Notes: generated from the sequence alone by a model not told the origin. Counted from the stretch's first letter, positions 46,085 through 46,510 are shown. The stretch is DNA of 64,000 nt from Clostridiales bacterium (GCA_003534295.1 DPDV01000008.1:146132-210131); one strand, 5' to 3'. A program made the numbers and translations.

Positions 46085-46141
46085 AACACAGGTCCATCGG
46101 TTGTACCGATGAACCTGCGGGGAGATTTCCCTCTCCCAATC

Positions 46142-46411
46142 TTATTTAAATAAGATTGGGAGGTTTCTTTCCACACCTTCAAAGAAGAGGTGGAGGGATT
46201 CTACCTCTGCCGGCACGTTTACTGCCCTGTAAACGTGCTTTACTGTCCTCGGAATGCCTATGAAATAAAGGCCTTCCGAAGTTTTTGCCTTCAGGTAATC
46301 TCCTGAAGGTTGGTCAGGAGTCATTACACAAATGTAACACTCCTTTTTTTGACTCTCCCTTTTTGTGCAGATCACCTCAATCTGCACGCCTTTGCAATTG
46401 CAATTTGCCAT
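46142..46411 (-). CDS. Hypothetical small protein encoded in a GC-rich, hairpin-dense island
   Basis: 89 aa from the ATG at 46411, 6 nt after AGGAGA. Sequence begins MANCNCKGVQIEVICTKRESQKKECYICV. Codon usage is GC-rich. The coding status is uncertain because the region is packed with perfect hairpins. Confidence 0.35.
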   Translation of the reverse strand: MANCNCKGVQIEVICTKRESQKKECYICVMTPDQPSGDYLKAKTSEGLYFIGIPRTVKHVYRAVNVPAEVESLHLFFEGVERNLPILFK

Positions 46412-46481
46412 ATTGTTTCTCCTATCTTGGTTTCTGATGTCTTCCATGATGCAACCCCCTCAAGGAAAATCACCTACATAT

Positions 46482-46510
46482 ATTATAACGTTTTTGAGCT
46501 CATTTGTCAA
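46482..46510 (-). promoter_or_regulatory. Perfect-consensus sigma-A promoter facing the GC-rich island
   Basis: On the minus strand: TTGACA (46510-46505), exactly 17 nt, then TATAAT (46487-46482). Confidence 0.7.

Follow-up and report, generated by a model that had tools for sequence, protein, structure and literature searches.

VR-RNA of Clostridium perfringens is a dual-function (coding) small RNA, the ermC, aprE, and cryIIIA leaders of Bacillus subtilis are mRNA stabilizers of the 5' stem-loop and Shine-Dalgarno (SD) type, and the staphylococcal agr specificity region is a locus of balancing or diversifying selection with sharp-edged allele classes. Further dual-function small RNAs (sRNAs) of the Firmicutes are RNAIII/hld of Staphylococcus aureus and SR1/SR1P of B. 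subtilis (PMC12612679, PMC12310071). Here, we set these systems beside a locus of a Clostridiales bacterium. The window analyzed is a stretch of 64,000 nucleotides (nt) (GCA_003534295.1 DPDV01000008.1:146132-210131), and the locus, which we call island A, is a GC-rich patch at 46085 to 46510 that carries an open reading frame (ORF) of 89 codons, ORF-A, on the minus strand; a second and unrelated patch near 41.5 kb is called island B. The reading that we favor, with reasonable though not firm confidence, is that island A is an orphan small-protein gene with a densely structured, probably long-lived mRNA and that it is kept as divergent alleles.

How does island A compare with the described systems? 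Like the dual-function sRNAs, it would be transcribed on its own, from promoter to terminator, as an RNA of a few hundred nucleotides with a series of stem-loops, a small ORF, and a lineage-restricted distribution. It departs from them in that the ORF has 89 codons and fills about two-thirds of the RNA, the hairpins lie within the coding sequence, and the alleles are hypervariable; nor is there any sequence or Rfam relationship to them. Like the ermC, aprE, and cryIIIA stabilizers, it has a hairpin a few nucleotides from its predicted 5' end, a strong SD, and a strong terminator, but its hairpins run through the entire coding region, and the stabilizing role is one that we infer. With the agr region it shares deeply divergent classes and mosaics within one species between near-identical flanks, but it has no quorum-sensing, restriction, or surface-structure gene content, and its product would be a cytoplasmic orphan.

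Two further comparisons come from the literature. The small-ORF (sORF) or "structured ORF" candidates of surveys of GC-rich intergenic regions (IGRs) (PMC6429828, PMC11109978) resemble island A, being GC-rich, strongly folding "intergenic" stretches of AT-rich genomes with a small ORF and a ribosome-binding site (RBS). The GC-rich-IGR pipelines label as sORFs those motifs that can form no structure other than a terminator (PMC6429828, PMC11109978), whereas in island A structure and coding coexist over the whole ORF, with covariation; these surveys have no category that fits islands A and B. Perfect stems, clustered multibase changes, and one-step "compensatory" changes recall the hairpins made by template switching (PMC8794818, PMC5453318). 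However, template switching is a mutational mechanism and not a gene class, and alone it leaves the G·U bias, the conservation of hairpin positions, and the coding constraint described below unexplained. Taken singly, the components of island A are of known kinds: it is a gene for a small protein, its mRNA is structured, and its polymorphism is a balanced one. The co-location of hairpins and predicted beta-strands across a whole ORF, kept through near-complete sequence turnover and in two unrelated neighboring genes that are both hotspots of diversity, is a combination that we have not found described.

A Predicted Monocistronic Unit

All coordinates are those of the window, and features lie on the minus strand unless the plus strand is named. 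The GC fraction is 0.40 to 0.46 over 46100 to 46500 in AT-rich surroundings of about 0.27; the first-pass annotation of the window had remarked on the GC-rich patch. The same annotation had singled out a perfect TTGACA-17-TATAAT promoter at 46510-46482, and the description is accurate: the site matches consensus at 12 of 12 positions and is the sole perfect copy in the window, where 0.06 would be expected by chance. The promoter, with its -35 hexamer (46505-46510), is invariant in all alleles, and the spacing from the -10 hexamer (46482-46487) predicts a transcription start site at about 46475. By its sequence, this is a predicted promoter of the sigma-70/SigA type. At the other end of the island, the stem at 46119-46087 (15 bp, 8 of them G-C, with a 3-nt loop) is followed by TTTT and is conserved across alleles; it has the form of an intrinsic (Rho-independent) terminator, and we predict that the island transcript ends there (46083-46119, with the terminal UUUU). 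Promoter and terminator together predict a monocistronic unit of about 395 nt, of which the ORF makes up 68%. The 5' leader (46412-46475) has a core that is single-copy within the window and contains a 5'-proximal hairpin at 46474-46436. The island is flanked by the 3' ends of two genes, a DAP_DH_C-like dehydrogenase gene and the convergent mscL.

ORF-A Has the Signature of a Protein-Coding Gene

ORF-A (46142-46411) was correctly recognized at first reading as an 89-codon frame behind AGGAGA. Its codons run from 46411 to 46145, the stop codon occupies 46144-46142, and the SD, AGGAGA, lies 5' of it at 46423-46418. The product reads MANCNCKGVQIEVICTKRESQKK...NLPILFK and includes the peptide HVYRAVNVPAEVESLHLFFEGVER. 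An in-frame ATG farther upstream, at 46447, would give a 101-amino-acid version and is not conserved; other alleles read ATG TGA there. Our allele set comprises 20 distinct transcripts of one species, drawn from gut metagenomes, 14 of type I (window-like) and 6 of type II, and the frame of ORF-A is open in 18 of the 20.

The two types are only 53% identical over codons 1 to 60, upstream of a conserved KHVYRAV motif, and the three indels that separate them are all in-frame. Similarity between the types is specific to the frame: the BLOSUM62 sum is 114 in frame 0 versus 28 and 4 in the other frames, and frame 0 has 0 stops versus 2 to 6 in the others. The SD and an ATG-GCA start are conserved among alleles, segregating sites within type I are distributed 12/8/21 over the three codon positions, and dN/dS (the ratio of nonsynonymous to synonymous divergence; Nei-Gojobori) is 0.19 to 0.62 in all nine comparisons. 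An open frame, in-frame indels, purifying selection, and a conserved RBS and start are what a protein-coding gene would be expected to leave in its sequence.

Could GC-rich stems have left a frame open by accident in a structured RNA that is never translated? Such a noncoding RNA would sit well with the extreme folding described below, with the frequent skipping of ORF-A by gene callers, with the lack of protein homologues beyond one species, and with the many spurious ORFs on both strands of the island. It would leave unexplained a frame that stays open across 47% divergence and three in-frame indels, the amino-acid similarity confined to that frame, the third-position excess, a dN/dS that stays at 0.19 to 0.62 throughout, the conserved SD and ATG-GCA, and a predicted beta layout that is consistent between alleles. 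We regard this explanation as very improbable.

The product is Lys/Glu-rich and hydrophilic and has no hydrophobic helix. It had been described as Cys-rich, which is true of one allele class; type II alleles carry a single Cys. AlphaFold2 (AF2), given a six-sequence alignment, returns an all-beta, seven-strand model (predicted local distance difference test [pLDDT], 75; predicted template modeling score [pTM], 0.63), and the type II protein modeled alone, with low confidence (pLDDT, 57), shows the same seven strands at equivalent positions. The models thus predict a soluble, all-beta protein of seven strands. The fold yielded no significant structural neighbor that could suggest a function, and an assignment on that ground was dropped.

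Hairpins Are Maintained within the Coding Sequence

That a hairpin-dense ORF lies behind a consensus promoter was the central proposal of the first-pass annotation, and both the coding signature and the maintenance of the hairpins bear it out. Against shuffles, folding of the transcript gives z = -9.3 for the minus strand and -9.7 for the plus strand. With GC corrected for, no other stretch of the window is as over-folded, and every allele, type II included, gives z = -9 to -12. When ORF-A is compared with synonymous-codon permutations, which preserve the exact protein and codon usage, z is -6.3 to -8.2, and 0 of 100 permutations attain the observed energy; six ordinary genes of the window score +1.3 to -2.2 in the same test.

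ORF-A holds seven hairpins. H1 (46365-46387, codons 9 to 16) has a 9-bp stem, and in type II the homologous codons are covered by another hairpin, of 8 bp. H2 (46316-46344, codons 23 to 32) has 12 bp with a bulge and shows a G-C to A-U double compensatory change, in one direction or the other, in 7 of 14 alleles. H3 (46288-46309, codons 35 to 42) is the 8-bp stem CCTTCAGG/CCTGAAGG, and H4 (46247-46281, codons 44 to 55) is an imperfect 12-bp stem with a U-A/G-C exchange and U-G/C-G/U-A changes at two pairs. H5 (46213-46238, codons 58 to 67, KHVYRAV) is the 10-bp stem GCACGTTTAC/GTAAACGTGC. In the H6 region (46170-46208, codons 69 to 81), CCACCUCU has two mutually exclusive pairings, upstream with AGAGGUAG or downstream with GAAGGUGUGG, both within the invariant ORF tail; in allele L118, the H6 stem is lengthened by three changes, two of them synonymous. 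H7 (46133-46162) is a palindromic hairpin of 13 to 14 bp with the stop codon inside, built on the 17-nt palindrome CTCCCAATCTTA.../...TAAGATTGGGAG. On the plus strand, H7 is followed by TTTCTTTCC and, to judge from this, may have a second role as the mscL terminator.

The stop-codon stem and the 10-bp and 8-bp stems (H7, H5, and H3) had been listed at first reading along with H2, as "at least four" hairpins. All of them are present, and the tally falls short: it missed the leader hairpin, three ORF hairpins, and the minus-strand terminator. The complement of H2 followed by T7 on the plus strand (46316-46350) had been taken for a plus-strand terminator inside the ORF. The stem and the T run are in the sequence, but the terminator is not conserved, with L118 having only four A in the sense strand and type II alleles having no equivalent.

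A consensus structure derived from the 14 type I alleles has 112 pairs. Its stem cells are 99.6% paired, versus 40 to 46% when the partners are slid by 1 to 3 columns, and both-sided changes at three pairs make up 17 cells (H2 G-C/A-U and H4 U-A/G-C), which 0 of 500 shuffles attain. One-sided stem changes mostly keep pairing by G·U on the ORF-sense strand, which on the opposite strand is an A·C mismatch, and folding favors the sense strand over the plus strand by about 12 kcal/mol. Given this bias and this stability edge, the sense RNA is most likely the folded molecule. Polymorphic columns are scarcer in stems (13 of 147 versus 41 of 120 outside them; p = 5e-7), and the same is true of third codon positions taken separately (5 of 28 polymorphic in stems versus 17 of 29 unpaired; p = 0.0025). 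Unpaired columns are 38, 23, and 59% variable by codon position, a coding pattern. Type II alleles form different hairpins over homologous codons from sequence unrelated to that of type I, for example, where VQIEVICT corresponds to DIELIYV and PSGDYLKA to KPKGNYVW. Nearly every hairpin has its counterpart in a predicted beta-strand, and the linkers, which are A-rich, encode what the models place as Lys/Glu/Thr-rich loops. These observations support the view that the hairpins are a feature maintained beyond the protein sequence and not an accident of composition.

A Candidate Gate in the Leader

The leader contains an invariant UUUUCCU at 46469-46463. In some predicted folds it pairs with GGAAGA in the 5' hairpin, and in the consensus fold it pairs with the SD, AGGAGA(A); the predicted accessibility of the SD ranges from 0.02 to 0.83 by allele. 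This modeling suggests that the leader may act as a translational gate.

An SD-sequestering alternative pairing in a structured mRNA is also what one would look for in a type I toxin-antitoxin-like (TA-like) locus, in which a stable toxin mRNA with a sequestered SD is under antisense control, here, e.g., by read-through from mscL. Transcription of the convergent mscL could yield RNA antisense to the 3' end, there are terminator-like sites on the plus strand of the island, and the gene is lineage-specific and variable. However, type I toxins are usually hydrophobic or membrane proteins of fewer than 60 amino acids, whereas this product has 89 residues, is hydrophilic and predicted to be all-beta, and lacks a hydrophobic helix. 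The plus strand has no promoter-like site within 46085-46510, which leaves mscL read-through as the only antisense source, and the plus-strand T run is not conserved. With neither a small hydrophobic toxin nor an antisense gene with its own promoter in evidence, we rejected the class, and a locus of this general kind seems to us the least probable of the readings considered here.

Deeply Divergent Alleles between Nearly Identical Flanks

The hypervariable segment (46240-46474) extends from the leader to about codon 57, and it is in its ORF part that the allele classes are 53% identical. Synonymous divergence (dS) of ORF-A is 0.17 to 0.42 between different type I alleles and exceeds 1.1 between types. 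For the same contig pairs, the dehydrogenase gene about 100 nt upstream has a dS of 0.004 to 0.022, so that ORF-A diverges at synonymous sites 10 to 100 times as much as its neighbor. Variation begins at about the predicted transcription start site and stops at H5, the 3' edge of the segment; the promoter and the last ~150 nt are at the species baseline, which on both sides of the segment is 96 to 99.5% identity. Mosaic alleles such as L114, L118, and L119 point to recombination among alleles. As a sequence pattern, this divergence fits long-term balancing or diversifying selection or the repeated import of alleles, and local hypermutation may also contribute to it. On one contig, L025 (positions 1 to 700), ORF-A is fused at codon 8 to a RelA/SpoT-like gene; given its 0.84x coverage, we discarded the junction as a probable chimera.

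Could the hairpins themselves be by-products of mutation? In this scenario, template switching or quasi-palindrome correction in a very highly transcribed, dispensable gene would go on generating inverted repeats and making them perfect, with no function of their own, and would drive the hypermutation of the locus. Template switching is documented as both creating and maintaining RNA hairpins (PMC8794818), and several features of island A are of the expected kind: clusters of multibase changes (e.g., TTGCA to GCAGC, ACC to GTA, and GCCTTT to GGTCCT), new perfect stems in single alleles (H6 of L118 and, in ORF-B of island B, GACGGGA/TCCCGTC), a dS 10 to 100 times that of the flanks, and hairpins and repeats that are the sites of rearrangements, frameshifts, and a deletion. 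On the other hand, the preference for G·U over A·C in one-sided stem changes implies filtering at the RNA level. Both allele classes place hairpins over the same codons, stems have fewer polymorphic third positions than unpaired sequence does, and two unrelated genes keep z near -6 in every allele while other genes of the window do not; a dN/dS below 1 together with dense stems is also not obviously expected. We consider functionless hairpins unlikely, if deserving of real weight, and note that a mutational origin of the hairpins and their selective maintenance are compatible and not mutually exclusive.

The population pattern bears as well on the possibility that the transcript regulates in trans, by base pairing or by sequestering protein, on the model of RNAIII, SR1, or VR-RNA, with the protein as a second and possibly unrelated output. 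The size of the transcript, the array of hairpins separated by single-stranded A-rich linkers, the strong stand-alone promoter, and the terminator would all suit such an RNA, as would structure maintained beyond coding needs, and the class is an established one (PMC12612679, PMC12310071). However, known dual-function sRNAs usually have ORFs of fewer than 50 codons beside a distinct regulatory domain (PMC12310071), whereas here the ORF is 68% of the transcript and the hairpins are inside it. We found no conserved single-stranded seed and no Rfam family match, and the variable part is almost wholly replaced between allele classes, which would ill suit a fixed RNA target. A dual-function RNA therefore strikes us as rather unlikely.

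One Species, One Site

About 30 copies of island A were gathered from contigs encoding the protein clusters, from a metagenome scan with the invariant leader, and from look-ups of ORF-B. All lie in the same genomic context, and since their flanks are 96 to 99.5% identical to the window, all come from one species. In six assemblies (L114 to L119), the island with an intact ORF-A lies in the ~460 nt between the dehydrogenase gene and mscL and no gene was called there, so that ORF-A must be undercounted in protein databases.

Among 5.8 billion clustered proteins, ORF-A falls into seven clusters, none of them named. When 1.8 billion representatives were searched exhaustively by profile, the only additions were a frameshifted copy and, in giant repeat proteins, two weak matches that we judged to be noise. 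No Pfam or PHROG family matches ORF-A, a genome scan by protein pattern found no homologues in other species, and searches of phages, plasmids, and viral contigs by DNA or protein found nothing; a mobile-element origin was rejected on this last ground. Homologues with conserved residues, which the first-pass annotation had held would speak for coding, thus exist within the one species, and none were found elsewhere in these collections.

The covariance search proposed at first reading placed the island in no known RNA family: across the whole window, no Rfam 15 model (transfer-messenger RNA [tmRNA], RNase P, 6S, signal recognition particle [SRP], OLE, raiA, and riboswitches among them) matches at the gathering threshold, a permissive search of 45900-46700 gives chance-level matches only (E of ~1 to 5), and ARAGORN finds no tRNA or tmRNA. 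Known structured RNAs were rejected accordingly, with neither Rfam nor ARAGORN giving a match.

A dehydrogenase-seeded genome scan recovered 80 syntenic loci in sister species, uncultured gut Clostridia such as Clostridium sp. CAG:567, CAG:508, CAG:440, and CAG:245, with dehydrogenases 74 to 81% identical. Relatives had been named at first reading as the place to look for presence or absence, and the outcome is negative: island A is in 0 of these 80 loci by nhmmer and is specific to its species. In most sister species, there is nothing GC-rich at the site; a few carry unrelated small GC-rich ORFs, a tRNA-like gene, or tandem GC-rich repeats. From these sequences, the site looks like a variable insertion hotspot for small GC-rich genes.

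Several of these occupants merit description. Within 0 to 700 nt past the dehydrogenase stop, L098, L043, L035, L089, and L050 have unrelated GC-rich ORFs of 59 to 161 amino acids on either strand, four of the five being moderately over-folded (z = -3.5 to -5.1). Downstream of the dehydrogenase in L094 (4110-4440) are two tandem GC-rich repeats of ~100 nt flanked by an inverted repeat; this region, with z = -9.5 and no ORF, is a candidate structured RNA or mobile element. In L061, about 500 to 580 nt past the stop, there is a putative tRNA gene, by resemblance only, with a CAT anticodon and a TTGACA...TATAAT-like promoter upstream.

Two classes of element were considered and rejected. Miniature inverted-repeat transposable elements and repetitive extragenic palindromes occur as dispersed copies, whereas island A is single-copy in the 64 kb window, to which the copy count within a genome is confined, and every metagenomic copy is in the same context. 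Targets of diversity-generating retroelements (DGRs) change in an adenine-specific way, whereas the substitutions here span all four bases and are accompanied by indels; moreover, the region has no repeat of the hypervariable segment that could serve as a template, and no reverse transcriptase is among the Pfam labels of called neighbors within about 7 kb on either side.

The neighboring genes have features of their own. The MscL homologue (45572-46084, plus strand) has 170 residues, of which 5 to 105 are covered by the Pfam domain, and past this domain it has a Lys-rich C-terminal extension of ~65 residues ending in CPFC...CPHC, a zinc-ribbon-like motif. In the minus-strand gene at 44938-45498, a 75-nt periodic repeat (45014-45420) corresponds to tandem DUF4116 repeats in a 186-amino-acid protein.

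A Second, Unrelated Island

The first-pass annotation had seen a parallel in organization between island A and the island at 41.5 kb, and the parallel extends to folding, variability, and orphan status. Island B (41540-42000) lies 4.4 kb from island A, between a Peptidase_M50 gene and rpsF, is unrelated to island A, and consists of a leader of ~190 nt, an 82-codon ORF (ORF-B; 41828-41580), and a terminator. Its transcript has z = -9.1, and ORF-B alone has z = -9.0 against shuffles and -6.6 against synonymous permutations. ORF-B has 24 protein clusters, all orphan, with a dS of 0.42 to 0.62 and dN/dS of 0.18 to 0.32. Every divergent ORF-B allele keeps its excess folding, and compensatory changes are visible; in the stems of the window allele, polymorphism is not significantly depleted (p = 0.39). 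A GC patch at 51.1 kb was considered as a third island and rejected, being the conserved amidase-signature region of gatA, with z = 0.0, like shuffled sequence.

One contig (L001; ENA ERZ26171650, 4.8x coverage, positions 3900-4200) carries a head-to-head junction between the 5' two-thirds of island A and the 5' part of island B, and the junction implies an inversion of ~4.4 kb that includes the intervening genes. The breakpoints are in the loop of H5 (window position 46224) and in codons 14 to 17 of ORF-B (41770). We sought an inverted repeat shared by the two islands as the cause and found only GGGC(C) microhomology. L017 has the same island A allele in the normal arrangement, and the inversion may truly exist in a strain or may be an artifact of chimeric assembly.

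Do islands A and B co-encode RNA hairpins and protein beta-strands, as a kind of gene not previously described, with the hairpin scaffold taking part in diversification or recognition? Two versions can be imagined. In the first, either selection or template-switch correction would keep the stems perfect, and the linkers that encode loops would meanwhile diverge 10 to 100 times faster than the genome; if true, this would amount to a DGR-independent upkeep of a hypervariable binding protein. In the second, the hypervariable structured RNA would itself be the recognition molecule, e.g., in conflict with phages. We consider co-encoding of this kind unlikely.

Weighing the Evidence

Several observations weigh against an orphan gene with a maintained mRNA structure. 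A poly-A run is the site of frameshifts in two type II transcripts and one protein cluster. In L001, the 3' third of ORF-A is replaced through the inversion, and a protein variant apparently without H7 exists (P0002), so that the C-terminal tail cannot be a strict requirement. ORF-A was passed over by gene callers in the six assemblies, confidence in the AF2 models is moderate to low, and a fold search with the predicted structure returned no significant neighbor and no PDB match. The conservation of stems is partly confounded with protein constraint, because the RNA stems and the predicted beta-strands coincide, and it is the third-position and synonymous-permutation tests alone that separate the two. 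The covariation comes from closely related, recombining alleles, and its cells are not independent events. Template switching could produce perfect stems and clustered multibase changes by mutation (PMC8794818). Finally, both ends of the transcript are predictions.

Two of the variants can be described further. The poly-A run is an A9 inside the type II ORF, homologous to the window at about 46270-46285, and is frameshifted in L023, L024, and P0008; slipped-strand ON/OFF switching or sequencing error may be the reason. The 119-amino-acid P0002 implies, from the protein only, a deletion of H7 between CTCCC direct repeats (window, ~46125-46160), by which its ORF would read on through the terminator.

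In the model that we favor, an orphan gene kept as divergent alleles, a housekeeping-type consensus promoter would drive a transcript of ~395 nt that an intrinsic terminator ends, and the conserved SD and AUG would direct translation of a soluble protein of 89 residues. Nearly the whole mRNA would be a string of local hairpins with A-rich linkers between them, comprising the leader hairpin, the terminator, and between them the seven hairpins of the ORF, about one for each beta-strand. We posit that these hairpins most likely make the mRNA unusually nuclease-resistant and abundant and that the alternative pairing of UUUUCCU, with the 5' hairpin or with the SD, could serve as a gate on translation. 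Deeply divergent, recombining alleles would be kept within the species between nearly identical flanks. From this population pattern, our guess is that the protein has a role in conflict or recognition, such as defense or immunity.

Implications

Small orphan genes of uncultured gut bacteria are usually ignored. Island A is a caution that a GC-rich structured island in an AT-rich genome is not automatically a noncoding RNA, and it is an unusually clean case of two overlapping codes, a frame under purifying selection and near-continuous, maintained mRNA hairpins. A main limit of the case is the narrowness of the lineage. If the structure controls mRNA lifetime or translation, the island would be a natural model for the extent to which RNA folding can shape coding sequence. 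If the diversity is adaptive, islands A and B would mark a conflict or recognition function in a prevalent human-gut lineage.

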